Shown: positions 22,918 through 62,214, counted from the stretch's first letter. The stretch is DNA of 64,000 nt from Naegleria gruberi (GCA_000004985.1 GG738911.1); one strand, 5' to 3'. Program-made: numbers and translations. The notes: generated from the sequence alone by a model not told the origin.

Positions 22918-25900
22918 TTATTGGTATTCTTCTTCTTCGACTTCAATATATTCAACCTCTTCACCTTCAGCAAGTGTGATTGGTTCTCCATTTTCGTCAA
23001 CATACTCATACTCGACTTGTTCTTCCACTTCTTCCTGTTGTTGTTGTTGCTGTTGTGGAGTGTTAGCCGTTGTTGTCGGTTTTTGTGTTGGTGAAGATAC
23101 CTCTGGTTTAATGTCGCTCTTCTTAATACTTGCTCTCGAGTTTCTGACATTTCTGGAATTTGGTGTTGAAGATCCTGATGAACCTGTATCGGAACTTTCA
23201 GTGGTGTTTGGACTAGTAGAAGCAATTGGAGCCAGTGGTTTCTTTGGATTGAACTCGACAGACATGTAATCTTGATCCAAGAAGAAGGTCTTGATAAAAT
23301 CAATGTTAGAAGTAGATTGGGCCTTGTGTCTTTGAATAATTTCATTAATGTGGCTTCTTCTGGTTGGGAATGGCTTTCTGTATTGCTTTTGCTTATATCT
23401 CACAGCCTTGTTAGCATTAATGGCAGTCATTCTCACCAGTGGTCCCAAGTTCTTCTTATCCACAATCATTCCATCAAGGAGAGGTCCGAAAAGTGGAACT
23501 TCTGGCTTTGTATAAATTCTTACCCTAAATAAATATGTTTCCTTATGTCTTTGATATGGATAAACACAGATGTGAACAAAGTTAAATTGAGAAGGAATTG
23601 TCCATGGTTTGTAATCTCTGTCGTGCTCGCTCCAAACAATGTGGACAAAATCGTTACCGACGTGACGTTTCTTTTGGATTTGTTGCGAGTCATTGACCTT
23701 AGTTGGCATTCTTGTAACATCGTGGAAAATCACCTCAGTTGTTGCGTTTGAGTAATATGGAGCAGTATTACCAGTAGTCAAATTTTCATCTAAACCTCCC
23801 ATAAAACCACCATGAGTTCTCATATCAGCATCCCAACCAAGAGATTGAACAAATTCCTTGTAGATTCTAGAGCCTGATGTTTCATCATTTTTCAAAATAT
23901 CCTTTTGGGCTTCTTGTTGATTGGCAACATAGATGAGACCAACCTTGATGGTTTCTCTTTCAGTTAACTTGTCGAGTTGTTTAAGAGATCTGTAGAATCT
24001 ACCGTTGGCATTTACCAAACTGAAAGAAGCTCTACTGGTACCAGAGAGGAAACCAATATTATTGAGGAGGGATCTAAATGCCTTATGTACAGATTTGGTT
24101 AAATTATCATTTTCATAATCTGGCTTCTTTGGAGCATGAGCTTCGTTGAAACCAAGTGCTGGTGTATCCTNNNNNNNNNNNNNNNNNNNNNNNNNNNNNN
24201 NNNNNNNNNNNNNNNNNNNNNNNNNNNNNNNNNNNNNNNNNNNNNNNNNNNNNNNNNNNNNNNNNNNNNNNNNNNNNNNNNNNNNNNNNNNNNNNNNNNN
24301 NNNNNNNNNNNNNNNNNNNNNNNNNNNNNNNNNNNNNNNNNNNNNNNNNNNNNNNNNNNNNNNNNNNNNNNNNNNNNNNNNNNNNCGGCACATTCTGGGA
24401 AAACTTGAGTAACATAGTGTTGCAAAACTTCAAGCATATCAGTCTTATCAGTATCAATTTCAATATCATAGTGAGGATAATCGAGTTCTTCAGCACCTTC
24501 ATCTCCAGCCATTTGGCTTTCTTGTTCTTCAACCTTGATGGCTTCTTCTTCTTCATGATTTTCTTCGTCATCATCAGAATCTTCCTTAGTTTCTTGTTGG
24601 GCAGTTACTGGAACCTTGATATCTGGTGTTTCGAATGATTCCTTATCTACCTTCAAACCACCTGTTTGGTCGATATCAGCTGGCAGATCAACTGCTGCCA
24701 AATCTTGTCTGACAATTGGTTCAGCACGAGGATCATCAGCATCAAACAATTCTTCGTCACCACGATTAACAATGCTTGATACATAGAATGAGGCTCTATC
24801 TTCTTCTGGAGAACCAGGGCTATCAAAACCAGCTTTGGAAGCTCTTGGAGCATTTGAATTCTTGGCACCAGACTTGGATTCATCATCTACCAATTCATCG
24901 AATTCCAAATGGTCAATTCTAACCATGTTATCCTTCTTGAAGGTCATTGTTTCTGGAGAGTAAACTTGCTTGAATTCCCAACAATATTTACCAGTCATGT
25001 CACGTAAAATTACAACACAAGATTCAGTCTTGTTTGGATTTTCCATAATTGTCAACAAGGTATAATTGTTGAAAACAAAGTGGTGAACCTTTGGAGAAGT
25101 TACATACAAGCCATTTTCTTCTTGCAAGACATCAAATTCGGAAATTTCAGTACTCATTCTAGCAGCACCAATAGGAGTTGGGAATTGACTGAAAACGTTC
25201 AAAGCATAACACAACAAGCTTTCGGCAGCAGTAGCAATTTCCAAAGCACTGTCTTCCTTGCTGAGTGTATAATTTTCGAAAGAATACATCTTGGCTCCTC
25301 TATCAGCTGAGTCTTCAGTGGCAGCTTCAGTTACAGTATCCTTTTGTGGAGTCAACAATACACTCAATGAAACAACAGATAAACCTCTATTGATAGCACT
25401 GAAAAGCATTGAGGCAACTTCCTTGCTTTCCAAAACCTTCATTGGAATGTATTGCAAAATTTCAACAATGGAATAGAACAAGTGTTTGAAAATGCTCCAT
25501 TGTGCCAAGGCAGAATCAGAATCCTTCAACTGAGAGGACAAGGCAGTACAGATGGTCAACAAGAATGTACGAATGGTTGGAACACCTAACTTGGTGAATA
25601 AACCTAAATGAGCCAATGTAACTACAGCATCGTGAGCAGCACAGGCAACATCAGCATTCTTGTCAACAAAGAACTTGATGAACATTTCAACAATTTGTCT
25701 GGATGGATTAGATCTTCCGTTAACTCCTTCAAGTTGGAGCTCATTGTGGAGAATAGCATAGAGACCCCAAATACACTTGATTTGAACATCAACAAATCTG
25801 TCATCTTGAACACAAGATTGAAGTGTTTGAACAATACGACCTCTGAGTTTGGTGAAGGTGGTTACAGTTTCTGGGTTCAAATTTTCCAACTTGGCTTGTT

Positions 25901-33072: not shown

Positions 33073-33108
33073 AAACCAAACTCTTAATTTCTCAAATTTC
33101 AACTTTCC

Positions 33109-33168
33109 TTAATATTAAATATTATTATTAAATATTATTATTAAATATTAAATATTAAATATTATAAA
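33109..33168. repeat. Microsatellite (ATTAAATATT)n in the intergenic spacer.
   Basis: Direct reading of tandem 10-mers. Confidence 0.8.
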
Positions 33169-33173
33169 AAAAA

Positions 33174-34226
33174 ATGATGTACTTTGGAAAGAGAAAATTA
33201 CACTCCTATCTAACAACGAAGACAATAACAGGCACACGATCCGAGGCTTTTCAGATTGAAACTCTCAATCAATTGTCCAATCATTCGCAAGGCTTTCATT
33301 TCCTTGATCGATTTCCTACAGAGAGGAGATGTATCTATCCTCATCAATTTAATGATCAATCCTCGGAATGGCATTGTATGGAGAGTGTTGATGCATTGGA
33401 GAAGATAAACTCTAAATTAATTCCCAAATATTTAAATATTGTAACGTTTAATGTTTGGTTTGCTCCCTTGATGATGAAGGAAAGAATGGAGGGAATAATG
33501 CAAATGCTAATGGCGAGAGAGGAATTACCTGATGTGATGTGCTTTCAGGAGGTAACTGATGAGGCATTGGAATTCATTGCTTCTCATGAATTGATAAGAA
33601 AGGAGTATTATTTGTCTGATTCTCCCAATGATTATTATACAACTGTGGATCCGTATGGAGTGTTGATGGCTGTGAGGAAGGGATTGCCTGTGAGGAGAAT
33701 GTTTTATAATACATTGCCTTCTAGAATGTATAGAGCTTGTTTGTCGGTTGAGTTGAATGATGGAAAGGAGAGTTTTTGTATATCAACAGTTCATTTGGAA
33801 AGTTTGGCCTCTACTGATATGAGATTCAAACAATTGGATGTTATTAGTGAATTTCAACAAGCATTTGATAATGCTGTACTGTGTGGTGATTTTAATTTTG
33901 ATTCTGAGAGGAATTATGATGAAGATTATCTTCCCTACCTTGAAAATGATTATTTGAATAATGAAAATTGGAAGAGCTACACTGATATCTGGAAGGAGTT
34001 GAAATATCCATCTAATGAGCTTGGAAAAACCTTCGATACCTCAGTTAATACAATGCTTAAAGGTCAAAAAGAAGAGTTGATGAGATATGACAGAGTTATG
34101 CTCAAATCCAAATCTTGGAAACCAACATTTGTTGAACTATTGGGGACTAGTCCAATTCAGACGAATCCAGATATTTTCCTATCAGACCACTTTGGAATTT
34201 GTACAAGAATCGAAAAAAGTGATTAG
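33174..34226 (+). CDS. TDP2: Tyrosyl-DNA phosphodiesterase 2 (TDP2)-like endonuclease/exonuclease/phosphatase-fold protein.
   Basis: EEP motifs in TDP2 order: VMCFQEV, TVHLES, LCGDFNFD, RYDRVM, LSDHFGI. The human TDP2 counterparts are LQEV, SHLES, GDTN, RFDRI, SDHWGL. Confidence 0.65.
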   Translation: MMYFGKRKLHSYLTTKTITGTRSEAFQIETLNQLSNHSQGFHFLDRFPTERRCIYPHQFNDQSSEWHCMESVDALEKINSKLIPKYLNIVTFNVWFAPLMMKERMEGIMQMLMAREELPDVMCFQEVTDEALEFIASHELIRKEYYLSDSPNDYYTTVDPYGVLMAVRKGLPVRRMFYNTLPSRMYRACLSVELNDGKESFCISTVHLESLASTDMRFKQLDVISEFQQAFDNAVLCGDFNFDSERNYDEDYLPYLENDYLNNENWKSYTDIWKELKYPSNELGKTFDTSVNTMLKGQKEELMRYDRVMLKSKSWKPTFVELLGTSPIQTNPDIFLSDHFGICTRIEKSD

Positions 34227-43212: not shown

Positions 43213-43302
43213 NNNNNNNNNNNNNNNNNNNNNNNNNNNNNNNNNNNNNNNNNNNNNNNNNNNNNNNNNNNNNNNNNNNNNNNNNNNNNNNNNNNNNNNN
43301 NN
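43213..43302. other. Scaffold gap (90 N) in the OYE upstream region.
   Basis: N run. Confidence 0.99.
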
Positions 43303-43722: not shown

Positions 43723-46700
43723 TTATTTAAAATAATCGAATTTGAGTAATTGTTGGGCAGTTGGACGAGTTTCTCGATTCTTATCCAACATTTGTAAAAT
43801 TAATTGAATTAGTTCATTGGAGTAGGAAATTGAACAGTTTCTCATTTGTTTAGTGAGGATGGTTTGAGCATTTGATGATTGATTTCCCATTAATAAATTA
43901 CTGATTGAAGTTGTTTCGTCTTTGGTCATGATTTGATAAATTGAAACTCCCAAAGAAAAGATATCCGTGTTGAAAGAGTATGAGCTTCCCAGGGCGATTT
44001 CAGGACTAAAAATTCATGTGAATTTAATGAGAATTGATAATACTTACCTCATGAAGAGAGGAGTTCCAACATATGATTGACCTTTCATTTCTTGATGCTT
44101 TTTTGCCAATCCAAAATCTGCAATTACTATTTCGATATTATCATTCTTCAAATATTTGACAAAAATGTTGGATGGTTTGATATCTCTATAATATTATTTA
44201 GTTTAACCGATATTTCTTTTGAAACGTACCTATGAATAATTGATAGTTGAGAATGAATATAATTCAAACCTTCGCATGATTGTTTCAGTATTTGCTTAAT
44301 AATATTTTCAGAACATTCTCTTTTCAAAAATTGATTCAAATCACCACTTTCATAATAATCCATGTCAATACACAGTAAACTATCTTGGGTTATGAAATAA
44401 TCATTGACTTTCAAAATGTTTGGATGTTTGATGTGGCTTAATTGGGAGGCTTCTTTCATTATTGTATTTAAATCAGAGAATGATTCAAACTTGATTACCT
44501 TAACTGCCTTGATTCGATTTCCTGCTTTTGAATCATTAGCTTTATAGACACTTCCAAATGCACCTTGTCCAATCCTTTCTATATTAGTATATCTTGAAAA
44601 GTAATCTTCAGAATTAGAAGCAGCTGATCCGGCTGAAGAGGTAATAATTGTTGATCCAGTTGGGAAATCAGACAACTCAATATTTGAAGTGTTGATACTT
44701 GCAATATCTTTTCCTTTGTTCTTTTTTTTCTTGGAAAGACAAACAATTATTACAATTACCACAATAACAATAATCACCAAAATTAGAAAACTTGCAACTA
44801 TTGGGATAGTAATTGAAACAATTAAAACAGTGGAGGTATCTATGGAATTTGTTGGAACTACTTGCTCACAATATTGGCCTTTGAATCCTCCTTTACAAGA
44901 GCAAATATTGAAATCTGAGCAGTAACCATTTCCATTACATACTGATAAATCTGATGCAAGTGTTCCATTACAAGAGAGGGACTCACATTTAGATCCATAA
45001 TATCCTTTCAAGCATTCACAGCTTTGGTTTTGAGAGTTGAATATTGCATTTCCCACACATGAAACACTCAATTTTCGTATTGTGGTTTTAGTCATTGTAA
45101 TGAACTGACTAAGTACTAAATCACTATCAATGAAATAAACCTCTTCTGTGTTTTCATTATAGCCAATAGATGGCGAGAAACCCATAAATTTAGTGTCTTT
45201 CCCAGAAAGATTGCCTGAGTAAACGTTAATATTTTCGTTAGCACTTCCTGCTAGTGTTGTCAACAGTCCAGTTGTTCTAGTGTATTTTCGTATTATGTAC
45301 GAACCATCCAAAATAATAATATCTCCATTCTTTTTAACATAAAAGGATATTGGAGATGATAGTGAAGATTCTAAGGCTGGTAGATTATTTCCTGAATAAC
45401 CAGTCTTACCATTTCCAATAATTGTTCTCAGATAATAAGTTCCATTTGCCATCTTTTCAATTACCCTTAATAGTGTACTTGTGCAATAATAGATGGAATC
45501 CTCATTAGAGGAGTAAGAGAAGAGAATAGTACCAAAATTGGTAAAATTGGTAACTGGACCATCTGGAGAGTATGAAGAAGTTACATTGGAGGCAAATCGA
45601 GTCACAATCATTCCTGTCCTTTTTTCAAGTTTACGAAAACTTGTACTGTCCGAAAGGTAGATATCTCCATTTTCTGGATTGACAGACAATCCTTTGATTG
45701 CAATGTTTCTAAATCGTGTGTCCAAAGCTGGACCATCTGTAACTGCACCACAACCATTTCCTGCAATTTTGGTTACATTCATAGTATCCAAAAAAACTTG
45801 TACAATATGGCACACATCTACAATGAATAATGAATTATCAAAGGAAGAGTGAGCCATTGTTAATATAGATTCCGAAACTAAGAAAAAGAATGGAATTTGG
45901 CCCATTGTAGGACTCGTACCCTTTACACTCTCCGTTTGGGAAATAATTTCACCAGATGTTTCATTAAACTTCTTCAAAGAAAATCTATCCAAATAATATA
46001 TTACATTATTGGCCTCATCTCTTGCAAATGCAGATGTAATTTTACCAACTTTTCTGGAGGGGTTGATGCCAACAATTGTTTGTGTGGTAGCATTTGAGAT
46101 TGTAATGTAGGATGCAAAGGCACTGTTGTAAATTGCTCCATTGATTACTTTTATACTGCCTGATTGTCTGCAACAATATTTTAGTAAATTAATTGTTACA
46201 CAACTTACAATAAAGACTTTGATAAACTAACATTCTCTCCACTGTATCCACTGAAGTGCAGAATATATTTCCTGAATTGTTATACGAATCTGCTCCTCCA
46301 ATTTTTATGAGCTGGGAATCATTCAATCTCATTTCATAAACTTTGGCTTGAAGCATTAAATATATTTTGTCGTTGTCACATGAAAAACTTTGAAATGAAT
46401 TATCAGATGAATAAACTGTTTCATAAACTGAGAGTTCCGCCAAATTAATCTTCATTATTTTAGAATAAGAAACTAAGAAATAAACACTATAGTTTCCATT
46501 TTGGTTTACAATACATGAAGAAGTAATTGGGGGAATATTGTAAATTTGTGATTGTTCTCCATTTCTGTATATAGTTATGAAATTTGGAGAGGAAAAAAGC
46601 AAGGTACCATTTGATAAAGAATTCCCTATTCCACTAATTGAAGTGATACCGGTTGGGATGTTCAATGAAGAAAGTTGCTCTGTATAAATATTAAATAAGA

Positions 46701-47812
46701 ATACATCTGTGGAAGTGACAATTACCATATCTCCATTTGGGAATATATAAGTGTTGGTTACTATACCAATATACTTCCTCTTCGGTGAGTTTTCTATTTG
46801 TAATTTGGAATAACTCCCCAAAACAGTTTTGACCAATCCATTAGAAACCTTTCTGACAATACTACTGGTTTCTATGAAAAATAGTTCATTCTTGAACGAA
46901 AACGGGTAAGAAAGTGAAGATGTTGGACTTGTTTCGAATTGTTGAATATTTTCTCCATATGGATGATTGATGACTCCTCCAGAAAATGTGGAAACCACCT
47001 TGGTTCTTGTATCAATTTTTCTAATACAGTTATTTGTCTGGTCAACTAGGTAAACTATAGAATTTTTCAAAACCAAAGAGGAGGGGTTATAAAATAGAAC
47101 TTTCGAGTAAGAATCAATCAGATCATCTCCTTCATATCCATAGAGGTCTTGCTGTCCAATGAAAGTTGATTGTACTGCTGATCCAACAGATTTCATTTGA
47201 ACAAAATGCGAAGAAGGTGAAGTTGTCCAAATTTCATTTGATGATGTTACAAATATTCCATATCTTGATAATTAATGGAGTGAATAAACTGTTTAAAATC
47301 TTCACTTACAAATTTGATTGAGGACTCAAACCGTCAACAACTCTGTACTTTCCATTGCTATCAATACGTTTCACCCTTTCCTCATCTGTGAAATAAACCG
47401 TATCCTCTTTGCCATTGGAAACAACGTGAATATTCTTTGGAGATTTCATAATGACTGAATTGGCATCCACATTATCATAACTTCCATCCAAATATGCTTT
47501 TTCACCGCCAATAGTCGAAAGTACCCTTGTTGAAATGTCATACTTTTTGATGAGGTTGTTTTGTGTATCTGCAATGTAAAGAATATTATTCGAAGAAACA
47601 ACAATTCCCAATGGTTTGTTAAATGTAGCAGAGATGGAAGAAACTAGTCCTGTTGAAGCAGAAACTATTCTAATCTTATTGTTTTGAGTATCAGCTATAT
47701 ACAAATCACCGTTTGGAGAAACACTAAGAGATGAAGGAGTATTAAATAGAGTTTCTTTTGCATGATATCCATCACTGAAACCAGCTGTTCCCAATCCTCC
47801 AAAAACTACCAT
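43723..47812 (-). CDS. Receptor protein kinase, about 1400 aa: roughly 12 NHL repeats, 3 EGF-like repeats, one TM helix (VLIVSITIPIVASFLILVIIVIVVIVIIV) and a Ser/Thr kinase domain. At least five exons: 47812 to about 47312, about 47265-46205, about 46150-44230, 44185-44048 and 44005-43723. Introns of about 46, 49-61, 44 and 42 nt. The 5' end and signal peptide are unresolved.
   Basis: Kinase motifs are split across exons: ...LSIIH|RDIKPSNIF...IADFGLAK...GTPLFMS|PEIALG...DIFSLGVSIYQ. NHL signatures LYIADTQNNKIRIV and IVYLVDQTNNCIRKID. Donors GTAAGT and GTACGT. The ORF-track pieces 47306..47812, 46189..47196, 44148..45992 and 43723..43953 are its exons. Confidence 0.6.
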
Positions 47813-48131
47813 GCTCTCATTCTTGAACCCGTATCCAAATTTCGTCTCGCCAAAGTGTTAATGGTTTAACAAAATAAAACACATTTGGTTATGTTGTGTT
47901 TAAAAGTGTGTTAGAAGAAGTAAAATTAAATTCCTTTTGTTTTGTCCTTCCGAAACAAAGATTGTTTATTACATAATAAATTGATTGTTTTGATTTTCGA
48001 AATGATGAAAGTATTGTTTAACAATAGTAATTTAGATCGAACCAAACAAAAGGATCTTTATTTAGTCTCCACTATAAATTATTCCGAAAAGACCAAACAA
48101 AGCCAATACTGTTACTGTGAAAACAAGAGGG

Positions 48132-48276
48132 CACCATTATAAATATTTATCACGGTTGCTTCATACATCACCACAGCCACCATTATAAATATTCATCACA
48201 GTTGCCACCATTATAAATATTTATCATGGTTGCTTTAAATTACAGTGCCCACCAATATAAATATTCATCACAGAAC
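48132..48276 (+). repeat. Four head-to-tail copies (two exact-like, two degenerate) of a 28-29-bp unit CCACCATTATAAATATT(C/T)ATCA(C/T)(A/G)GTTGC, 37-181 bp upstream of the ORF at 48313.
   Basis: Copies at 48132-48159, 48177-48205, 48205-48233 and 48248-48276. Each contains a TATAAATA box. Confidence 0.8.
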
Positions 48277-48312
48277 CCACCAATCATTATTACCACAAAC
48301 CATTAAAAACAA

Positions 48313-50019
48313 ATGCCACCAAAAATACAACCTCCTACATGGTCGGAGAATGATAGAACAAACATAAAACAAATGTTTGATGCTTTTAAAAACAAATCTA
48401 TCCCTGAAAATGTTGATTTAATGAATTATGGTAGATATATTGCAAATAACTATTTAAATAGTAAAATTGTATTAGGAAATTTAAATACAAACAAAAGTAA
48501 CACGTGGAAAGAATGGGAAAAAAAAGGTTATTTAAATGATTTAGAATACTTCTATAATAATTTACAAGTGAAATACTATTTAACAAATATTAAACTATCA
48601 CCTACTAATAATCCGATTGTTGGAAATAATTATTTGATCGGAAAGGAAGTACAAGTAGATCCTAAAAAGTTATTATTTAAATCTACAACAACCAAAACTA
48701 TTAGATTAGGAAAAGGTATTTTAAGTACAATTAATGAAAATAATTATTCTATGAAAGATATTATTTATAGTACTAAATATAAAGAATGTTTTAATGAAAC
48801 AAATAGTTCATTAGATATTCCTAAACATTTGCTTTTTGAAATACCAATTGATTCTAACAAATCTACTCCAATATCAAAATGTCAAACTAAAACAGATTTA
48901 AATTTACAATCAATCAAACAATCATTCCCTCCATTATCAAGCGAAGTTGAAGAAAGTAATGTTTTTGATAATAAGGAATTAAAAATTAAAGAATTATTAA
49001 TAGATTCAACTAATGATGATGATGATAATTTGTTCGATATGGATTTAGTTTCAGAAATCTTGAAAAACAAAACAAAACCTCCATCAACTCCACCATCAAC
49101 AAAACTACCCACAACTTCTCCACCAACAACTCCACTAACAATTACTCCAACAATACCACCAACTCCACTAACAATTACTCCAACATTAGATTCTCTATTA
49201 CAAATTGCCACACCAGTAATTTTAAAAGGAGAAGAAAAAAAAAGAAAATTCGATGATTATGAAAATGATGAACAAAATGAAAAGGTTTTAAAAAGATATA
49301 TAAAATCATTAGAAGAAAAAATTAATAAGTTAGAAAAGAAAATAGAAAAAAAATCCAAAATTATTGAAAATCTTATGGAAAATCAAAACAATTCCAAGAA
49401 AGTATCAGAAATTGAATATATTATACAACAAACTAAACCTATTGCCGAAAATATTATTAATAATTCTAAAATAGTACAAAATTTTATTGGTGATGTTAAT
49501 GAATTATTAAGTCAAACACATAATTGTAAACCTGTTATTATAATGGAAAAGAAAAACAAAATTATTTTATCAGATGAGGAGAAAAATAATTACTTAAAAA
49601 TGATTACTTATCATAATGATAAATCAGTAACGTTTAATTTGGATAGTATATTAGGTAAACAAATAAGAATTTCTGAAAGCCAATATCAACAATTATTAAA
49701 TAGAGGAAATTTAAAATCTGGATTTACAAAAAACTTATTTTTGGAATTTTTTAAATTAAAATCTTCAGATTTAACAGAAGAACAAATTGAAAAGGTTTTT
49801 AGATTCTTGGCTATAATTAAACCAATAACTTTTGATAAAAAAAGATTTAAAAAAGATAGGAAAAATTTGGAAAAGAAAAAAACAAAAAACGATGATGATG
49901 ATTTTGAAGAAAATGAAATAACAAAAGATATTAATAATTCTGATAATGAAAAATTTGAAATATCAGATAATAATGTTAATCAATATGATCTTACAAATAA
50001 TTTAGAATGTATGTATTAA
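48313..50019 (+). CDS. AT-rich K/N-rich protein of unknown function (568 aa) with a Pro/Thr-rich linker and a coiled-coil segment. First ORF of the candidate element.
   Basis: Long uninterrupted ORF at about 25% GC. PPSTPPSTKLPTTSPPTTPLTITPTIPPTP linker. KRYIKSLEEKINKLEKKIEKKSKIIENL coiled coil. No recognisable enzymatic motif. Confidence 0.45.
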   Translation: MPPKIQPPTWSENDRTNIKQMFDAFKNKSIPENVDLMNYGRYIANNYLNSKIVLGNLNTNKSNTWKEWEKKGYLNDLEYFYNNLQVKYYLTNIKLSPTNNPIVGNNYLIGKEVQVDPKKLLFKSTTTKTIRLGKGILSTINENNYSMKDIIYSTKYKECFNETNSSLDIPKHLLFEIPIDSNKSTPISKCQTKTDLNLQSIKQSFPPLSSEVEESNVFDNKELKIKELLIDSTNDDDDNLFDMDLVSEILKNKTKPPSTPPSTKLPTTSPPTTPLTITPTIPPTPLTITPTLDSLLQIATPVILKGEEKKRKFDDYENDEQNEKVLKRYIKSLEEKINKLEKKIEKKSKIIENLMENQNNSKKVSEIEYIIQQTKPIAENIINNSKIVQNFIGDVNELLSQTHNCKPVIIMEKKNKIILSDEEKNNYLKMITYHNDKSVTFNLDSILGKQIRISESQYQQLLNRGNLKSGFTKNLFLEFFKLKSSDLTEEQIEKVFRFLAIIKPITFDKKRFKKDRKNLEKKKTKNDDDDFEENEITKDINNSDNEKFEISDNNVNQYDLTNNLECMY

Positions 50020-50026
50020 TAATTTA

Positions 50027-50608
50027 ATGTTAAATTTTTTAGTTTTATTTATAAATAGAGAAAGAAATATGATTATGAATAATGAATGGTTAAACGGAGA
50101 TATAATGGATAAATATTTACATATTTTACAATTACAATTCCCTTTTCTTCATTTAACAAAATGTTCTCAAAGTATTTATTTTTTGGATACTGTTTTACGT
50201 ATTATTAAAAGTGCAGAAAAAATAATAGATTATTCAAAACTTAATTTTGTTACACTCAATATACCAGGTACACATTGGTTGTTATTATGTATTAGTAAGA
50301 TTAAATCAATTGTTTATATGGACATTATTGATTCTAAAATTGATTTATTATGTGACAATCTTAAAAAAATGTTAATTAAATCATTCACACAAAACTTTTT
50401 ACCAGAAAATTGTGAATTAGTTTTAAGAAATATCAAATGTAAACAACAATCAAATGGATTTGATTGTGGATTATATGTGTTATCATTTATCCGTCAAATA
50501 GGTCAATCAAATATTGAAAATTTTAATCTTAGTAATATCAATTTTGAAAATACATTGATTATAACAAGAAACGAAATGGCTGAACAGATTAAACCAAATG
50601 GTAATTAA
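50027..50608 (+). CDS. Ulp1/SENP-like C48 cysteine protease catalytic domain (clan CE, same clan as adenoviral, poxviral and asfarviral proteases), 193 aa. Starts 7 nt after the stop of the preceding ORF, in another frame.
   Basis: Catalytic-core signatures in order: WLNGDIMDKYLHIL, LNIPGTHWLLLCISKIKSIVYMDIIDS (His), NIKCKQQSNGFDCGLYVLSFI (Gln...Cys). Confidence 0.6.
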   Translation: MLNFLVLFINRERNMIMNNEWLNGDIMDKYLHILQLQFPFLHLTKCSQSIYFLDTVLRIIKSAEKIIDYSKLNFVTLNIPGTHWLLLCISKIKSIVYMDIIDSKIDLLCDNLKKMLIKSFTQNFLPENCELVLRNIKCKQQSNGFDCGLYVLSFIRQIGQSNIENFNLSNINFENTLIITRNEMAEQIKPNGN

Positions 50609-50692
50609 ATAAAGCTTCATTATTTTATGTTTTTATTAAATAATCAATTAACAAAAGTAATTTAGAAGAACTAAACAAAACCTATTTATAGC

Positions 50693-50720
50693 CACCATTA
50701 TAAATATTCATCACAGTTGT
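50693..50720 (+). repeat. Downstream copy of the 28-bp repeat (CCACCATTATAAATATTCATCACAGTTG), plus a degenerate remnant at about 50766-50790.
   Basis: Identical to the core of copy 2 at 48177-48205. Followed, like copy 3, by TTAATTACAGT. Confidence 0.8.
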
Positions 50721-51424
50721 TAATTACAGTATATACGGTTAACGCTTACAACGACAACTTCAAGGGCACCATTTATTAATATTTGGCGCCAATATTAATT
50801 AAAAAAAACAACCATACAACACACTTGGCTTATAATTGGAGGTGATATGTTGTATTAATATTCTTACAACTTTTAATACAACCAATAAGTTATTATTATA
50901 TTATAATTTAATATTTGTTTTAGTATTAATGGTAGTTAGATTATTAAAATTAGAAGAATAATAAAGAATAAATAGATTAAATATTCCCGATTTAGTCATT
51001 CGTGTAAGACATGAATTGATTTGTAATATATAAAACTAATCTCTCTCTTTACTTCTTGTAAGTAATTTATATTGGAATTTAAATTCAATTATTGTAGTTA
51101 ATTGTGTGGAAATGGAAGAAATGTGAGGAAATTTAGTATGAATATTGATGATCTTATCTTTTTGAAGATGATGGAAATAATGATGATAGTAATTAAGAAA
51201 ATATTTTAAATGATATAGTAGTGATGAAGATAACGATGGAAATAATAATGAAGTTGGAATAATATATCACATGTTTCCCTCTGCGGAATACTTTTTACCA
51301 TTCAGAACTTTATATCTGCTTAATCCAATTATGAAATTTTCTTAATCTAAACATTAATAAACATTCTTCTCGAGTTTAACAAAATTGACTTTGTGCATCA
51401 AAATCATCTATGTTTCGTTGGTCC

Positions 51425-51600
51425 AAACTATCTTTATATTTTAGACAAAACCATATTGGTTTGGTTAGTCAAAACTATTTTGGTTTGATTGGTCCAAACA
51501 ATCTTCGTTTAGTTAGTAAAAACCATGTTGGTTTGGTTAGTCGGACCGGTGTTGGTTTTGTTGGTCCAAACAATATTTGTTTTGTCAAACAAAACAAACT
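51425..51600. repeat. Degenerate minisatellite of about 24-bp units (CAAAACCATATTGGTTTGGTTAGT-like), about 7 copies.
   Basis: Tandem units are visible by eye: caaaaccatattggtttggttagt / caaaactattttggtttgattggtc / caaacaatcttcgtttagttagta / aaaaccatgttggtttggttagtc ... Confidence 0.7.
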
Positions 51601-51678
51601 CGGCTTCACAAATGGCAAACCAAATTTATTTATTTTAAATTGGTCCATCCGTTTTTTGTTTTGTGCGGAGCGATTTCC

Positions 51679-51993
51679 TCATTTTAGATCGACAAAATAA
51701 AGGACCGTCCTGACACTAGGGAATATTCTGAATATCAGATGTCTTTCACAATCAGATACGTACATGTCCTCTTCCATGCCAAAACAAATACCGCATGGGG
51801 TTTTGAGATAGGCATACTTGGCATCAAACATAGTCAGCATGTCATGACCGCTGGCAGTGTTTCCAATCAATGTTTGCACTTTATAATCGAGTGCATGTAC
51901 GAACAATGATGGAGATGTATCTTGTAGGAGTAACATGCTGCTGACACATGTCAACAACAGCAAACAATGGATTGTTACAAAGGGCGTGGACAT
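51679..51993 (-). CDS. Small hypothetical secreted protein (104 aa, N-terminal hydrophobic leader).
   Basis: ORF with leader MSTPFVTIHCLLLLTCVSSMLLL. Weak support. Confidence 0.2.
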   Translation of the reverse strand: MSTPFVTIHCLLLLTCVSSMLLLQDTSPSLFVHALDYKVQTLIGNTASGHDMLTMFDAKYAYLKTPCGICFGMEEDMYVSDCERHLIFRIFPSVRTVLYFVDLK

Positions 51994-52371: not shown

Positions 52372-55300
52372 TCATTTCGAAAGTGCTTGAATTCTCTGGA
52401 GTATTTGTGAAGGACTAATTCTACTGGCAGGATCATATCGTATCATTTCCCACAATAAATCACAACAGAGTTCAAATACCTCCCCTTGGTACTTCACTTT
52501 CTTACTAAATTGAACAATGGCAGGGAGAAGAACTTTCGTATCGGCCTCATCATTTCCTTGCTTGACTCTCAGCAATACAGATGCATAATCTCCTGAAAGC
52601 AGTTGATAAACTATGCATCCTAAACTCCAAATATCACTTGGTGGTCCGAATTCTCCCTTAATAATTGCTTCTGGAGCACTGTATTGTAATGTACCTTCGT
52701 AGGCAGTGAGATTGGAACGATGTTGATGTCTTGATGATCCCCAATCACCGACACACAATAAAAAATCATTATTCCATTCCAAGATGGATTTTGATGAAGA
52801 TTGAGGGTTTTCTGGAGCTTTTGCAATGAAAATATTGGTTTGTTTCAAATCTCTGTGGACCATTCCTTTTGAATGGAGATAGTCGAGAGCAGATGCTATT
52901 TGCTTGATAATTTCCAAAACTAATTCTATTGGAATTTGATTTTGATGGGTGTGAATCCAATTTCTCAAATCACACTTGTACAATGGCATGATGATACAAA
53001 TGAATAAACTATTCTCGACCATTGTACAACCTAAAATTGGTACTATGAAAGGATTGGATTCCTCACTCAATTCATACATATTTACAACTTCCTTAAATTC
53101 ACTTCCAAATGGATTGGTAACTTCAATCTGTTTCACAGCAAATAATTCATCAGTTGTAATCTCTTTAAAAATAAATACAGATCCATAAGCTCCACTTCCT
53201 AATTTCTTAACTAGTACATATTCCTTTTCACGAATTCTGAAATGATTTCTTGATGATAAAAGGTTTGGTGAGCTCGTTGAGGCAAGAGGACTGCTGATTG
53301 ATTTACTATTGCCAGGTAAATCTCTTGGATGATTTTCGACCTCATCAATGGTTTGAAGAGATACTGCTGTCTTATTGGTTGATGAATCTATTGAACTAAT
53401 TGTTTCAGGTTCTGAACGATAAACAAATGATGGTAAAAGACTCTTCTTTTCTGGATCTTGGTTTTTGTTTCTTCTAAACTTTTTAAAATAGACAAATACA
53501 CCAATACCTATGAGTGCTGATGAGATGCAAAGGAGAATAATACTAACAACAATTGCTGCAGCTGTTCCATTTCCAGAATCAATATCTTGACAAAATTTTC
53601 CACTATACCCATCATCGCATTGACATTTTGTTGAGTTTTGATTGGAAGCATTTTGACTGAGGACACAAAGACCATTAGATGAACACCTTTTGGTTGAGTT
53701 TTGAGATGGGTTATTTGAGGACGGATCACAATCCAACCAAGAACATGTTTCTCCAAAATAAAAAGGAAAACACGAACACTTATTGAATGAGACACAAACT
53801 CCTTGATCATTGCATCCACTAGTTCTCAATTTTCCAAAGCAGTAAGGTAATGAACAATCATTACCTCCATATTCTGAATTACATTTGCATGTGTTATTAG
53901 AAATGCATGAACCATGAGGTTGACAATTATTAACACCATCACAATTATATTGTGTGCATAGTTGACCTTCCCATCCACTATCACATTTACAAGTATTGTT
54001 GGAAATACATTTACCATTCGAGTTGCAACAGGTTGAATCATTTGCCAATTTCCCAAAACATATTGGAATGTCACAGAGATTTCCAACCCATCCCTCTTCA
54101 CAATCATAAATATTTGGTCCAACACATATTCCATGTTGTGATGGAATATCACAAGAATATGATCCACATTGCTCATTTCCTTTCCATCCACTTTGACACA
54201 AACATGTGTTATTTGAGACACATGTACCGTGTGAATTACACACCAATGAATTATTAGCTATTATTCCAAAACAAACTGGAATATTACACAAATCTCCATA
54301 CCATCCACTGGTACAGGAATACTGATTTGGTCCAATGCAATTCAGTCCATGTGTTGGCTTGGGAACATCACAAGAAAAATTGCTACACATTGAATTACCC
54401 CTCCATCCAGATAGACAGGCGCAACTTCCATTCACACAATCACCATGACCTGAACAAACTTGACCTTGTGAATCAATACACGAGTCAGAGTATCTCATTC
54501 TAATGGTAAAAGAATCGCTATATAGAAGAGCACCTTCTGTAGTTATGGCAACACCATTAGTTCCCTGAATGGCATCAGTTGTAACAGTTGAAATTATTCC
54601 ATCAGTATTAATCTTTCTGATAGCATTATTGCCTTTACAATCGTTAATACTCTCAACTAAAACCAGAAACCTACCTGAATCTGCAATGAAAATAACTCCA
54701 TTTGAGGTGACAGTCACTGCAAGAGGATAGCTTAATTGAGCACTAGTTGCTTGTTTCCCATCTCCTTGATTACCTCTTGTTCCAGTACCTGTTGTTTTCA
54801 TATCATTAACATTTGAGGACTAATTTGAAATATTTTAAGCTTACCTGCAATTACTGAAATAGTTCCTTTCGATAATTTCAAGATTTGATTTCCTCCACTA
54901 TTCGCAATATATAAATCCCCATTAGGAGTATAAAATAAACTTGTCGGATAATTCAACAAGTTCGAGGTAGAAAGTGTTGTAATGGTCTTATCATTATTGA
55001 CCCTCCTAATAATATTCACTCTACTATCTGCAAAGTCGAAGAGGAATTGATCTGCCCACAATGATGGAGGCGCCACGACACCACTAGGTCCAGATAATGT
55101 ACATGAAGTAGCTGGTAATCCATCATTACAATTTCCATTATTGGATGCATATTTTCCTGCAATTGTTGAAATTATTCCAGTATTGTCCACTAATCTAATT
55201 AAGTTATTTGCACTATCTGCAATTAAAAGGCCGAGTGAAATCTTGGCCATAGCTTTTGGCTGATTCAAAAGAGATTGGATTGCTGGAATGCCATCATTGT

Positions 55301-56657
55301 TATAACCAGAATTGGACAAACTACCAGCAATTACATTAGCAAAACCAGTTTTCAAATCAAGTTTTAAAACTGCTGATTGATAGGAAGTAAGGTAGACTTC
55401 ACTATCACTTATGACTTGTAATTGATTCAAGTTTCGTAAAAAAGAGCTTGAAGCTGGTACATTCGGATTAAAAGTATATGGATAGAATCCACTAAAAAGG
55501 AGAGGTGTTTCCAAAGTACGAAAATTAAACTTCATTACTTGGGTTGCTGCCACATTTTGCATGGTTGACTTGAAGTAAATATGATCGTGTGAGTCCCATC
55601 CAAAAAAGTTAATTCCCACAATGTTGTTATCATACAGAACTTTCACCTTTGCCAACTGTTGAGTGGTTTGATTGAATAAAAGTAATTGACCTCCACCAGT
55701 AGAAACAACATAAGATGAATCATAACCCAAACTGATAATATGTAATGGATTTGTAATGGGTGCAAAATTGGCCCAATTATAAACTATTCCATTTGTACTG
55801 AACTGTAATAATCTATTATATCCAGAATCTACAACAATCATTCCATCTGAAGAAAGGGCAATACTTGTTGGATTTGACATTTTACAACTCAAAGGATCAG
55901 CACCATTACAATTACTTGATGATTGAGTATTCACACCTCCCATAATAACCTTACACAGAACACTATTTTCATCAAGAAATGTCATGGTTCTAATAAAATT
56001 ATTCCCACTATCAACAATGTAAAATATTCCATTATATTTTGTAATCATAGTTGGAGCACGAATGGCATTATACATGGCAGGATCATAACTCAAAGAAAGA
56101 GTTCTCAAAATTCCACTTTCCATATCAACAACTCTTATATAACTAGCAAAATTATAGACATCCAATATAAATAGAGAATTTGTCGATTCATCCAAGTAAA
56201 CTCCACTCGGTGATGTCAATGAAAATTCAGTAGCCAATCCACTCAATGATGGTTTATCTTGAGGCACAGAACAAATTCCATTTCCTGCCACAACCACACT
56301 CATATTTCCAATAATCCTTCTCACCACACAAAATTGAATATCCGATAAGTAAATTATTGGCAAACCACTCGAAATATCCAAAGATGATACATGAATATTA
56401 CCTTGTGGTGCTACAATTGGAAAATGGTAGGAATCAATAGTAGTGCCAATACTTCCGGCAACCATAATATTAGCATTAGAATATAGACCAGCAAATTGAT
56501 TCTCCAACTCCTTGGTTGAGTCAATTTCGACTGCAGAAGCTTCTGCTCGAATACTAATGTTGTGATGATCACAGTTGCAAAGTGTGATTACTGCTGTCGT
56601 CGTCGTGAGAAACCCCAAAATGATGCAAAGAAAGAGCTGCAGGAGTGATATCTTCAT
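52372..56657 (-). CDS. Receptor protein kinase, about 1420 aa: signal peptide, roughly 10 NHL repeats, roughly 8 EGF-like repeats, one TM helix and a Ser/Thr kinase domain. Two exons (56657-54845 and 54788-52372) with a 56-nt phase-1 intron at 54789-54844.
   Basis: Donor ATTGCAG|GTAAGC and acceptor AACAACAG|GTACTGG join ...ISVIAG to GTGTRGNQGDGKQ... in frame. Signal peptide MKISLLQLFLCIILGFLTTTTA. TM AAAIVVSIILLCISSALIGIGVFVYF. Kinase motifs LGSGAYGSVF, AVKQIE, HRDLKQTNIF, DWGSS, SAPE. Confidence 0.75.
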
Positions 56658-57019: not shown

Positions 57020-58510
57020 ATGTCCGAATCACTAAATACTTCTGCTACTACAAATGATGATCAATTCTATTGTCATCTTCATCATGGTGAAGAAGAACAT
57101 GAACATGATGATGAAGGGGTGATTAATTTTTGTGAAATAATGTCAAATACTAAATTATCCGATATTAATGATCAAAATTGTAAACAAACAATGTGTTTAT
57201 ATTATTTTTTAAATAAGGATCAGGATGTTAGTGATGGTGAATTTAAAATAATGAAATTTAATAATCAATTAAATTTAACTATTGAACAAATTGTTCATCC
57301 ACAAAATTTGGCATCAACTGCTATGTTTTTAATTAATATATGTGGAATTAATCATTTATATTATTTTAAATATTGTATTGCCGATGATGATGAAAATTCT
57401 CATATTGAACACGAATTTAATTCTTCTAATGAAGTTTTTATTAATGAACATTTAAAATTAGTACCATTTCCATTTAGAAAGAATGAATTTGTTACTAAAT
57501 TTGATAAAAGTGGAACCTTAATGAAAACTAATCTAAATTCTATTTGGGATAGTGAAGGTTCTATCATTAGTGTTAATAATAATACACTTGAACATTCTTA
57601 CCTAATGGTTAATGATCAAAGCAATATCAAATATATTGAAAATTTCAATGATGAAATAATTCATTTTGAACGAAATGGCCATCGTATATTTTTAACTAAA
57701 AGTGGTAAAATATATGGTTATGGAGAAAACTTGTATAATCAGTTAAATCTAAATGGGGGAAATGATAATTTCATTCAATTTATATCAGACATATCATTTG
57801 ATTCATTGTCATTTAAAAAAGTTATACCAGGCCTTTTTAAAACTCATTTCATTACTGAAAATGGTAAATTATATGCATCAGGTGAAAATTCTGATTACAA
57901 TTTAGGATGTTCAGAAGGAAAAACAAGACAGGAAATTCATAATGATATTTCAATAGATAATGGAAAGTTTCAATCAAATCCTGCACGTAAATGTGACATA
58001 ATAGATGAAAAATATGAAATTGAACATGTTTACCAAATTGGAATAAACGGGCTAAGCATTTTCTTAACTAGGGAAAAGAAATTATTAGCATGTGGAAAAT
58101 ATTTTGATGAAAATGGTAATCAAGTTATTTCAATTGGTGATATCTATCCACTAGATGGTGAAATCGATCAATTATTCATCTGTGCAAACAAGTATTTACT
58201 TGTGATTACTAAAAATGGAAAGGTTCATGTAATTGGTAAAAGAAATATCGATCCAAAGAATTATAACAAAAAATCAACTCGTATTTTAGAAGATAGATTT
58301 ATTGAAAGGGTCAAAACTCAAATTGAAACTTTAATTTCATTGGACGAAAGAATTTTTGGAAAATTAGAAATTTATCCAAATCCATTTGATATGGGTTGTG
58401 TTTTGAAATTGGAAATGTCCTTGGATTTGATAATATTTTTCAAGTCGTTGAGAAGTCAATCCCTCCAAAGCAAGACAGGCTTTTCAGATTTAACTTTCAA
58501 CTTTTGTTAA
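57020..58510 (+). CDS. RCC1-like repeat (seven-bladed propeller-type) protein with an N-terminal Cys/His-rich segment. Very AT-rich and N/K-rich.
   Basis: RCC1-type turns FLTKSGKIYGYGENLYNQLNL and ITENGKLYASGENSDYNLGC. 496-aa ORF. Confidence 0.45.
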   Translation: MSESLNTSATTNDDQFYCHLHHGEEEHEHDDEGVINFCEIMSNTKLSDINDQNCKQTMCLYYFLNKDQDVSDGEFKIMKFNNQLNLTIEQIVHPQNLASTAMFLINICGINHLYYFKYCIADDDENSHIEHEFNSSNEVFINEHLKLVPFPFRKNEFVTKFDKSGTLMKTNLNSIWDSEGSIISVNNNTLEHSYLMVNDQSNIKYIENFNDEIIHFERNGHRIFLTKSGKIYGYGENLYNQLNLNGGNDNFIQFISDISFDSLSFKKVIPGLFKTHFITENGKLYASGENSDYNLGCSEGKTRQEIHNDISIDNGKFQSNPARKCDIIDEKYEIEHVYQIGINGLSIFLTREKKLLACGKYFDENGNQVISIGDIYPLDGEIDQLFICANKYLLVITKNGKVHVIGKRNIDPKNYNKKSTRILEDRFIERVKTQIETLISLDERIFGKLEIYPNPFDMGCVLKLEMSLDLIIFFKSLRSQSLQSKTGFSDLTFNFC

Positions 58511-60870: not shown

Positions 60871-62214
60871 TTATTGCTCTGTTTCTTCCTTTTCCTCACT
60901 TGATTCAGTTCCAACCTCCTCATAGTCCTTCTCCAGAGCTGCCAAATCCTCCCTAGCCTCAGCAAACTCTCCCTCCTCCATTCCCTCCCCAACATACCAA
61001 TGGACGAAAGCTCTCTTTGCATACATTAAATCAAACTTGTGATCAATTCTCGAAAAGACCTCAGCAATGGCAGTCGAATTTGAAATCATGCACACAGCCC
61101 TCATCACCTTTGCCAAATCTCCACCTGGCACAACACTTGGTGCCTGATAATTAATTCCACATTTGAAACCTGTTGGCGACCAATCAACAAATTGCACCGT
61201 TCTCTTATGCTTGATTGTTTGTACGGCAGAGTTGACATCTTTTGGAACGACATCTCCTCTGTACATTAAACAACATGCCATGTATTTGCCATGACGTGGA
61301 TCGCATTTGGCCATCATTGAGGCAGGTTCAAAAACTGCATTTGTGATTTCACTCACACTGAGACGTTCGTGATAGGCCTTTTCGGCTGAGATTATTGGAG
61401 AATAGGATGAGAGCATAAAGTGGATTCTTGGATAGGGAACTAGATTAGTTTGGAATTCAGAAATGTCAACGTTGAGGGCACCATCGAATCTGAGAGAAGA
61501 AGTGAGGGAGGATATGACCTGAGCGATTATTCTGTTGAGATTCGTATAGGTTGGTTTTGGAATGTCGAGACATCGACGACAAATGTCATAAATTGCTTCG
61601 TTATCCAGAATTACAGATACGTCACTGTGTTCCAATAAGGCGTGAGTGGACAAGACTGAATTGTATGGCTCAACAACAGCGGTGGCAATCTGAGGTGATG
61701 GATAAATTGTGAAATTCAACTTGGGTTTCTTTCCATAATCAACTGACAACCTTTCCAATAACAAAGCACCTAAACCTGAACCAGTTCCACCCCCAACCGA
61801 TGAGAACACCAAGAAACCTTGCAAACCAGTGCAATTATCAGCTAACTTTCTAATTCTATCCAAACATAGGTCAACAATTTCCTTGCCAATCGTATAATGA
61901 CCTCTTGCATAATTATTGGCAGCATCTTCCTTGCCACTAATCAACTGATCAGGATGGAATAGCTGTCTATAGGTACCAGTTCTCACTTCATCCACAACTG
62001 TTGGTTCCAGATCGAGAAAAACAGCTCTTGGCACATGCTTTCCAATTCCAGTCTCTGAAAAGAAAGTATCGTTGGAATCATCATAGCCGAAACTCTTATC
62101 TGAAGGCTTCATTCCATCAGATTGAATACCATGCTCCAGACAGTACAATTCCCAACAGGCATTTCCTAACTGAACTCCTGCCTGTCCAATGTGAATTGAA
62201 ATAACTTCTCTCAT
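60871..62214 (-). CDS. TUBA: Alpha-tubulin, intronless, 447 aa. The C-terminal tail is acidic but lacks the terminal EEY/EEF.
   Basis: [31 protein letters not shown]..., GGGTGSG, K40 present, ...[43 protein letters not shown] stop. Confidence 0.95.

Follow-up and report, generated by a model that had tools for sequence, protein, structure and literature searches.

The locus described here is an AT-rich island of ~3.5 kb (~47860 to ~51400, unstranded; bounds taken from the composition profile) within a 64-kb stretch of eukaryotic DNA, the window. The GC content of the island is 19–26%, against ~34% for the window. The 1-kb bins covering 48001–51000 gave 0.26, 0.23, and 0.22, compared with 0.31–0.42 in most other bins, and the 200-nt profile ran at 0.17–0.34 across ~47900–51400, or at 0.17–0.26 once the promoter repeats and a PT-rich stretch were set aside. 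Both profiles agree with the drop to ~25% GC noted in a preliminary description of this DNA. The island holds a single protease gene, besides which no ORF longer than 41 aa was found. Downstream of the gene lies an AT-rich tail (50791..51410, unstranded; GC 0.19–0.28), also with no ORF >41 aa. No decayed second copy of the protease gene was detected in 50800–51400 by blastn or tblastx, no Rfam families or tRNAs were found in or near the island, including its tail, and scans for bacterial promoters and terminators showed no enrichment in the island.

The preliminary description placed two ORFs in the island, ORF1 of 568 aa and ORF2 of 193 aa, the latter starting 7 nt further on in a different frame, and our coordinates match (48313-50019 and 50027-50608). 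However, it took ORF2 to be a stand-alone protease and the island to be free of introns, and neither view held. A candidate spliceosomal intron of 34 nt (50009..50042, + strand; GTATGT...AAATTTTTTAG) unites the two frames: its donor and acceptor lie exactly at the ORF1/ORF2 frame switch, and splicing restores the frame. Along the + strand of 48313-50608, the donor pattern GT[AG]NGT occurs only once, at 50009, as does a polypyrimidine-AG acceptor (50035-50042), and such a donor/acceptor configuration was found at 13 of the 2136 positions tested in the same sequence (0.6%). A window-wide intron scan picked the 50009 site together with candidates at five other loci, where the sites at 46208, 37544, 27984, and 58932 resemble short host introns and the one at 5589/5560 is less clear. 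Host introns read directly are 41–46 nt long with GTAAGT...AG boundaries; the six host introns seen here span 41–56 nt, all longer than the 34-nt candidate. An alternative intron of 46 nt, from GTATTA at 50013 to the AG at 50058, would keep the frame as well, yet it was rejected for its poorer donor. From these sequence signals, we infer a single gene with ORF1 and ORF2 as its exons. As the ORF2 frame is open from 50006, a single-base assembly error in place of the intron could likewise fuse the ORFs, and the product would still be one protein.

The predicted spliced product joins ORF1 and ORF2 in frame into a protein of 753 aa with the usual Ulp1/SENP layout. Exon 1 (48313..50008, + strand), which derives from the 568-codon ORF in DNA of 23% GC, encodes a K/N-rich orphan N-terminus, a PT-rich linker, a K/E-rich stretch, and the ~40 residues that open the C48 domain. 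The linker, already noted in ORF1, was detected as short DNA repeats at 49071-49187. Exon 2 (50043..50608, + strand) encodes the remainder of the C48 catalytic domain and ends with a stop codon at 50606-50608.

The assignment of ORF2 to the Ulp1-type core of clan CE was borne out. ORF2 matched Pfam Peptidase_C48 (PF02902) with 42.7 bits (gathering score, 20.7; E=7.5e-11), and at E<=0.1 Pfam listed just one further match, RickCE_cat, which stayed below its cut-off (E=0.007). In HMMER alignments to PDB, the best solved relative of ORF2 was yeast Ulp1 (E=6e-7), followed by ChlaDub2 (E=2.7e-6). ORF2 residues H83, D99, Q141, and C147 align with the catalytic residues of Ulp1, which we take to be H514, D531, Q574, and C580, with Q141 six residues before C147. 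The tunnel tryptophans are also kept, W21 in WLNGD and W84 in THW, corresponding to WLND and HW in Ulp1. When the spliced C-terminus was used as the query, Ulp1 (E=2.8e-7, 33.8 bits) and SENP1 (E=3e-6, 30.3 bits) were matched; the Ulp1 alignment started at chain residue 6 rather than 43, and scores rose by ~1 bit. Both alignments cross the splice junction, the 'EIT' start motif of SENP1 pairing with 'ENEIT' of ORF1, and the N-terminal helix/strand subdomain of the C48 domain is present only in the spliced model. The order of motifs (the Trp of WLN(D), H-W, D, and QQxNGxDCG) is common to the island protein and Ulp1/SENP1-2 (MEROPS C48, clan CE), as is a long, non-conserved N-terminus with a charged helical stretch ahead of the domain. 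Unlike these proteases, the island protein reaches only ~33 bits with its best solved relative, and its N-terminal 520 aa are without relatives. Judged from these alignments, the gene is predicted to encode a very divergent Ulp1/SENP-type protease in an ordinary-looking, intron-containing layout.

No close homologue of the spliced protein or of ORF2 was found in a word search of 5.8 billion proteins. For ORF1, a HMMER scan of 1.84 billion representative proteins returned no relatives at E<=0.001, and no Pfam, PHROG, or NCBIfam family fell below E=0.001 (best PHROG, 0.0029; best Pfam, 0.081). A match of ORF1 residues 337-419 to Plasmodium eL22 (E=5e-5) was judged compositional, as only the AT-rich Plasmodium protein matches and Pfam L22e does not. 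Single-sequence AlphaFold2 modelling gave pLDDT values of 33–34 for both ORF2 and the ORF1 N-terminus. Amoebae are hosts of bacteria with clan CE effectors, and the ChlaDub2 and sub-cut-off RickCE_cat matches of ORF2 recall such proteins (ChlaDub1/2, RickCE, XopD/NopD). However, Ulp1 and SENP1 scored slightly higher, and only their alignments span the N-terminal subdomain when the spliced query is used. The island gene further differs from bacterial effector genes in its candidate spliceosomal intron and its eukaryote-style low-complexity N-terminus, and a close-relative scan of 185,579 prokaryotic genomes yielded no relative of ORF2.

Upstream of the gene, four 28–29-nt TATAAATA repeats form a putative promoter array (48131..48276, + strand), with copies at 48131-48159, 48177-48205, 48205-48233, and 48249-48276. 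The fourth copy is more degenerate, and the last TATA box of the array sits 50–57 nt upstream of the ATG. The array had been described as four tandem copies; the count stands, but the spacing is 46, 28, and 44 nt, so that only copies 2 and 3 are head to tail. Copies with 0–1 mismatch occur at 48131, 48177, 48205, and 50692, with 0 expected in shuffles, and 9 of the 12 occurrences of TATAAATA in the window fall in the island. No TATA box was found at the 14 other gene starts checked in the window, where host genes carry an A-run. An identical copy reported downstream of ORF2 was recovered as an exact 30-nt match, AGCCACCATTATAAATATTCATCACAGTTG being present at both 48175-48204 and 50690-50719. 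By contrast, the tail said to be shared by copy 3 and the downstream copy is alike but non-identical (TTTAAATTACAGT versus TTAATTACAGT). The 28-bp direct repeats thought to flank the gene are also real, but the flanking repeat is longer, comprising ~140 nt in diverged form (48010-48165 and 50640-50800, 2630 nt apart). On the left, a leader with a degenerate repeat copy (CTCCACTATAAATTATTCC; 48018..48084, + strand) is homologous to 50648-50709 (77.6% identity over 67 nt, blastn). The downstream diverged direct copy of 48018-48159 (50648..50790, + strand) consists of a leader, the 30-nt repeat at 50690-50719, a spacer, and a degenerate GGGCACC repeat (50763-50784) in which the TATA box is disrupted. 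The ~140-nt direct repeats most plausibly represent a promoter module that was duplicated, and its 30-nt core may have stayed identical through selection or gene conversion.

The codons of the protease gene were found to end mostly in A/T, as described before. Its GC3 is 0.12–0.13, compared with 0.19–0.41 in the other ORFs apart from an RCC1-like gene (0.16), and the GC content at 4-fold sites is 13/186 (0.07), compared with 880/3571 (0.25) in host genes (Fisher p ~1e-9). This value also lies below the GC content of the non-coding DNA of the window (0.30). These data support the view that the island segment is compositionally foreign, that is, off compositional equilibrium with the host. The RCC1-like gene (57020-58510) lies in the same window and is likewise AT-rich; given this gene, AT-rich genes may be ordinary for this genome.

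The island lies inside an interval (47822..51714, unstranded) that parts two pieces of a host NHL-EGF-kinase gene, with host exon fragments on both sides. On the right, within an ORF at 51993-51679, is a host exon fragment (51715..51993, - strand) encoding a hydrophobic, signal-peptide-like N-terminus and the first NHL-type repeat (…MYVSDCERHLIFRIFPS), with an A-run ahead of its ATG. On the left, the rest of the gene (47310..47821, - strand; NESMVVFGGLGTAGFSDG…) starts in mid-repeat and runs to 44148; it has no signal peptide, its ORF starting at 47812 on the same strand as the 51993-51679 ORF. The protease gene is antisense to both pieces. The best in-window matches of the right fragment are the NHL repeats across the island, in register, at E ~0.5. 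Joining the two pieces, which is possible in frame and with the right NHL spacing, lifted the NHL score from 51.4 to 57.8 bits. Thus, the earlier placement of the island between two receptor-kinase genes was not upheld: the fragments on either side look like one gene, and their sequences indicate that the island probably split one NHL-EGF-kinase receptor paralogue. Alternatively, the 104-aa ORF on the right could be what is left of a tandem paralogue, in which case the island would be intergenic. No canonical splice signals by which the host gene might remove the island were found, and the 104-aa ORF may therefore be a relic. At the Naegleria lovaniensis alpha-tubulin locus, used for a synteny comparison, unrelated neighbours were found. 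That foreign AT-rich DNA was joined into the scaffold as an assembly chimera or contaminant is hardly credible. The draft scaffold does contain runs of N (24171-24385 and 43213-43302), and the composition of the island is strongly different from that of the window, but no gap lies within 4.5 kb of the island and host-type coding sequence carries straight on at either side without a break.

A relic on the right would also suit a native gene, namely a fast-evolving, lineage-specific Ulp1/SENP paralogue that had become AT-rich through weak expression or mutation bias. Such a gene would sit between members of a tandem array of receptor-kinase paralogues, beside the dead 5' fragment of one paralogue, and its repeats would be local promoter duplications. 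A short host-type intron, the canonical Ulp1 layout, the single copy in the window without any mobile-element feature, the AT-rich RCC1-like gene close by, and a host gene without canonical splice signals to span the island are all in keeping with this origin. Orphans make up a third of the genes in the genome of Acrasis (PMC11589745), which favours a native gene if the host is Acrasis-like. However, a 4-fold GC of 0.07 is far under that of both the other genes and the non-coding DNA, none of the 14 other gene starts examined resembles the TATA-repeat promoter, and the 5.8 billion proteins searched held no close relative. On this evidence, we consider a native gene a serious contender, albeit an unlikely one.

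The island was originally put forward as a candidate mobile or viral insertion, but it shows no transposase, terminal inverted repeats (TIRs), viral hallmark gene, or second copy in the window. Ulp1 domains are carried by several transposon superfamilies, such as the Kaonashi/KI-MULEs of plants and KDZ/Zisupton-type elements, and viral clan CE proteases include adenain, the processing proteases of poxviruses and ASFV, and the cysteine proteases of polintons, virophages, and PLVs. Like the Ulp1-bearing transposons, the island has a C48 domain within a repeat-flanked, insertion-like segment of unusual composition; with the viral proteases it shares the clan, the catalytic order, and an AT-rich context with a reiterated promoter-like motif. 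Unlike the former, it has neither transposase nor TIRs and is single-copy in the window, and the promoter forms part of its repeats, which run in direct orientation. Unlike the latter, ORF2 matches only C48 in Pfam, sub-threshold RickCE_cat apart, and has no viral neighbours. Searches of the island with Pfam, PHROG, and NCBIfam, and with HMMER over 1.84e9 proteins for ORF1, revealed no transposase, and no capsid, packaging ATPase, pPolB/polymerase, or integrase was found in the island, whose flanks are host NHL-EGF-kinase sequence. As for terminal repeats, comparison of each flank with the reverse of the other was no better than shuffles, the palindromic TATA repeat apart, leaving only the diverged ~140-nt direct repeats. 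Next to these repeats, the sequence showed nothing resembling a PBS or PPT, and the interior contains the protease gene only. In the search for a target-site duplication, no significant short direct repeat was found at the composition boundaries, which place the ends of the island approximately. No virus-database match was obtained: scans that catch close relatives or exact patterns, with the repeat searched as a 27-nt pattern, returned no relative of ORF1, ORF2, or the repeat in IMG/VR, or of ORF2 or the repeat in JGI metagenomes.

A remnant that once carried the Ulp1-like protease and has since lost its transposase or capsid genes would nevertheless explain several features. Such a remnant could stem from a MULE/KDZ-type transposon that is non-autonomous, from an LTR-like element, or, as a fragment, from a nuclear DNA virus that is AT-rich and whose genes have a promoter module in common. 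The foreign composition (GC3, 4-fold GC), the direct repeats on both sides, and the interrupted host gene would all follow, as would the gene-less downstream promoter-like module, a feature expected of a piece of donor genome whose promoters are reiterated; in addition, Ulp1 domains are known to travel with transposon superfamilies. Against this, the island lacks every mobile or viral gene named above, ORF1 belongs to no family below E=0.001, neither TIRs nor PBS/PPT-like features accompany the single copy in 64 kb, the IMG/VR and JGI scans found no relatives, ORF2 is a Pfam C48 member, and the gene contains a candidate spliceosomal intron. We regard such a remnant as improbable.

The off-equilibrium composition and the antisense position within a split receptor paralogue therefore lead us to prefer an inserted cassette: one nuclear, spliced gene that was laterally acquired, or inserted in some other way, and is neither an autonomous transposon nor an integrated virus. 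We hold this reading with evenly balanced confidence. The 4-fold GC, the kind of promoter, and the nesting within another gene point to acquisition as a single-gene cassette, with a putative insertion event and source, and the foreign composition, a promoter unique in the window, the bracketing direct repeats, and the position inside what looks like one gene all fit insertion. On the other side, a native gene, too, would have a Ulp1-like layout and a spliceosomal intron, and the split of the host gene is based on similarity at E ~0.5 and on logic. In the proposed cassette, a promoter of four to five 28-nt TATA-box repeats would drive one transcript. Removal of the 34-nt intron would yield the 753-aa protein, in which a low-complexity N-terminus without relatives would precede a complete C48 domain with the triad, the Trp tunnel, and the oxyanion Gln intact. 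The predicted protease most likely cuts SUMO, or another ubiquitin-like modifier, off precursors and conjugates, and its N-terminal part, if it works as in Ulp1, would confer localisation or substrate choice. Once inserted, the cassette would have come to be processed by the host spliceosome. In a variant that we hold to be distinctly improbable, the island is a fragment or minimal mobile cassette of an unsampled AT-rich nuclear element of heterolobosean-type amoebae. This virus or episome would have intron-bearing genes sharing the reiterated ~140-nt TATA module, and it would deliver a SUMO-pathway protease and insert into host genes.

If the inserted-cassette reading is true, the island is a clean single-gene case of recent acquisition in a free-living amoeba, and its foreign promoter, host-spliced intron, and broken receptor gene would make it useful for studying the expression of acquired genes. 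Its cargo, a SUMO-type protease, would then be a hint that SUMOylation in the host is manipulated. If native, the gene is merely a very divergent SENP paralogue. Inserted or native, the island bears no transposon or virus signature.

A direct similarity between 47935-48050 and 51478-51598 was weak, being matched by 1 of 300 shuffles, and was not relied upon. No inverted minisatellite copies were detected on the left flank by PWM. The minisatellite itself (51411..51600, + strand) has a 24-nt unit with a 72-nt higher order and ~8 copies; with the 24-nt unit found at 51411-51597, it adjoins the island as the preliminary description had stated.

The AT-rich segment at ~47860–51400 (the island) contains two open reading frames on the plus strand: ORF1 (48313–50019; 568 aa, K/N-rich with a PT-rich stretch) and ORF2 (50027–50608; 193 aa), which begins 7 nt past ORF1 in the +1 frame. 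Both were present as given in the preliminary description, which had, however, taken the protease encoded by ORF2 to be stand-alone and free of introns. On the plus strand of 48313–50608, the strong donor consensus GT[AG]NGT has a single match, GTATGT at 50009, and the polypyrimidine-AG acceptor also has a single match, TTTTTTAG, ending at 50042. These sites are 34 nt apart, with the stop of ORF1 and the ATG of ORF2 both lying between them, and splicing of 50009–50042 in silico joined the two frames without a stop, yielding a 753-aa product. A comparable configuration was found at 0.6% of positions in 48313–50608, all around 50009–50042. An intron scan of the whole window returned this pair and candidates at five other loci, four of which resemble short host introns (47–56 nt; donors GTAAGT, GTGAGT or GTAGGT), with 5589/5560 being less clear; two introns read directly in the neighbouring host gene measure 41–46 nt.

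When the spliced C-terminus was used as the query, the Ulp1 alignment started at chain residue 6, versus 43 for ORF2 alone, and the SENP1 alignment extended back to 'EIT', where the catalytic domain starts; both scores were slightly higher than with ORF2 alone. The 3′ end of ORF1 therefore encodes the beginning of the protease domain, ~40 residues. An assembly error of a single base could take the place of the intron as the cause of the fusion, as the ORF2 reading frame is open from 50006, but the protease is not stand-alone under either explanation. We consider it very probable that ORF1 and ORF2 are one gene. Its one short predicted intron, located at the frame switch, runs counter to the intronless description and argues for a eukaryotic nuclear history of the protease gene.

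ORF2 matched Pfam Peptidase_C48 with 42.7 bits (cut-off 20.7), and its alignment to yeast Ulp1 placed WLNGD, H83-W84, D99, Q141, and C147 at catalytic positions, confirming the Ulp1-type clan CE core proposed earlier. At E ≤ 0.1, Pfam returned only C48 and a sub-threshold RickCE_cat for ORF2. Bacterial ChlaDub2 nearly equalled Ulp1 in score with the ORF2 query; with the spliced query, however, alignments spanning the N-terminal subdomain were obtained for Ulp1 and SENP1 only. The 753-aa product is also organised like Ulp1/SENP proteins: its N-terminal region is long and non-conserved, a charged helical stretch comes next, and the catalytic domain (spliced residues ~527–753) is C-terminal. The N-terminal part of the product is an orphan: Pfam, PHROG and NCBIfam gave no family under E = 0.001, a search of 1.84 billion representative proteins had zero matches at E ≤ 0.001, a word search was likewise empty, and single-sequence AlphaFold2 models gave nothing usable. 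The sole PDB match of this part, Plasmodium eL22 (phmmer, E = 5e-5, 25.7 bits; ORF1 residues 337–419, window 49321–49569), is most likely a K/N/I-rich compositional likeness, as neither another eL22 nor Pfam L22e was matched. As a 568-codon ORF in 23% GC DNA is not attainable by chance, the gene is intact. The protease, a divergent and probably active enzyme of the Ulp1/SENP family, adds a new member to a known protein family.

The reported drop in GC content was evident in 1-kb bins from 48001 to 51000 (0.26, 0.23, and 0.22), compared with ~34% for the window. At 200-nt resolution, GC ranged from 0.17 to 0.34 across ~47900–51400, and from 0.17 to 0.26 once the promoter repeats and the PT-rich stretch were set aside. 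The island is a compositionally foreign 3.5-kb segment. GC3 of the protease gene was 0.12–0.13, versus 0.19–0.41 in 24 of 25 other ORFs, the exception being an RCC1-like ORF (0.16). At 4-fold degenerate sites, GC was 13/186 (0.07) in the protease gene and 880/3571 (0.25) in 16 other ORFs (Fisher p ~1e-9), and the non-coding DNA of the window has a GC of 0.30. The silent sites of the protease gene are therefore more AT-rich than the presumably least constrained DNA of the host, which argues for a different mutational history. This argument is somewhat weakened by the AT-richness of the RCC1-like ORF, and a native, fast-evolving gene is a possible, though rather doubtful, explanation.

The TATA-containing direct repeat of 28–29 nt was located, as described, on both sides of the ORFs: copies with ≤1 mismatch start at 48131, 48177, 48205, and 50692 (0 in 100 shuffles), and a more degenerate one at 48249. 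Thirty bases are identical between 48175–48204 and 50690–50719. In copies 1 and 3, the TATA box lies within a perfect 12-nt palindrome, ATAAATATTTAT (48139–48150 and 48213–48224), in place of which copies 2, 4, and the downstream copy have ATAAATATTCAT. Nine of the 12 occurrences of TATAAATA in the 64-kb window fall in 48138–50706. TATA boxes were absent from −160 to −20 at all 14 of the further gene starts examined; an A-run of 6–9 directly 5′ of the ATG was seen at ~8 of 14 (e.g. 57020, 58596, 51993, 56657, 9490, and 33174). We predict that the protease gene carries a reiterated TATA promoter.

The downstream repeat belongs to a larger module, 50640–50800, which is a diverged direct copy of 48010–48165 and is built from a leader, the repeat, a spacer of ~40 nt, and a repeat of the GGGCACC type. 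As the 30-nt core is perfectly kept (100%) beside a drifted leader (~78% identity over 67 nt), the comparison suggests constraint or gene conversion acting on the core. The sequence 3′ of this module lacks any ORF >41 aa and shows no remnant of another copy of the gene; Rfam families and tRNAs are absent as well. The minisatellite noted beside the island was recovered at 51411–51597 (feature bounds 51411–51600), with a 24-nt unit and a 72-nt higher order; the window holds no further copies. The left flank of the island (47935–48050) shows weak direct-orientation similarity to it, matched by 1/300 shuffles.

A tandem cluster of NHL-repeat/teneurin-type EGF/TM/protein-kinase receptor genes occupies 44148–47821, 51679–51993, and 52372–56657, all on the minus strand. 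On one side of the island, the minus-strand ORF 51993–51679 (104 aa) opens with an A-run and ATG; its product has a hydrophobic N-terminus resembling a signal peptide, as well as an NHL-type repeat (…KTPCGICFGMEEDMYVSDCERHLIFRIFPS). Across the island, a gene starts at 47812 mid-repeat (MVVFGGLGTAGFSDG…), without a signal peptide, and continues through NHL, EGF, TM, and kinase parts down to 44148. Within the window, the 104-aa ORF is most similar to the NHL repeats of this gene, which it matches in register (E ~0.5). An in-frame join, …IFPS/NESMVVFGG…, reproduces the repeat spacing found elsewhere in the protein, and joining both parts raised the NHL score from 51.4 to 57.8 bits. Because of this NHL evidence and because no canonical donor or polypyrimidine acceptor for excising 3.9 kb was found, we favour a receptor paralogue split by the island over an island lying in a giant intron. 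Alternatively, the 104-aa ORF could be a relic of tandem-array turnover. Most likely, the segment interrupted a host receptor-kinase gene, and one receptor gene of the cluster appears split or 5′-truncated by it.

The proposal of a mobile or viral insertion gained no positive support. No transposase or viral hallmark gene, no inverted terminal repeats, and no demonstrable target-site duplication were found at the island, which is single-copy in the 64-kb window. Scans that catch close relatives or exact patterns only were empty for ORF1, ORF2, and the repeat in IMG/VR and for ORF2 and the repeat in JGI metagenomes; a scan limited to close relatives was likewise empty for ORF2 in prokaryotic genomes. 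We regard a remnant of a mobile element or virus as improbable and misassembly as extremely so, and give an acquired single-gene cassette about an even chance.

The window, which belongs to a draft assembly and has N runs (scaffold gaps) at 24171–24385 and 43213–43302, is eukaryotic and gene-dense; its introns are short. Its alpha-tubulin ORF (60871–62214, minus strand) shows 90% identity to Naegleria lovaniensis, the highest among the matches listed from 5.8 billion proteins, with plant and other tubulins at 85–88%, which suggests an amoeba of heterolobosean type; comparison with the N. lovaniensis tubulin locus revealed no synteny. Acrasis kona, for which introns of 9–95 bp and an abundance of both orphan genes and PAS proteins have been reported (PMC11589745), would be a fitting candidate. 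At 33080–33173, directly 5′ of the ORF at 33174, the sequence is AT-only and microsatellite-like, (AATATT/AAATATTATT)n. The RCC1-repeat ORF (57020–58510, plus strand; 496 aa) ranks second among the genes of the window in AT-richness (GC 0.26, GC3 0.16, 4-fold GC 0.13) and has no TATA repeat 5′ of it; it may have been acquired too, or it may reflect an AT-rich gene class in the genome.
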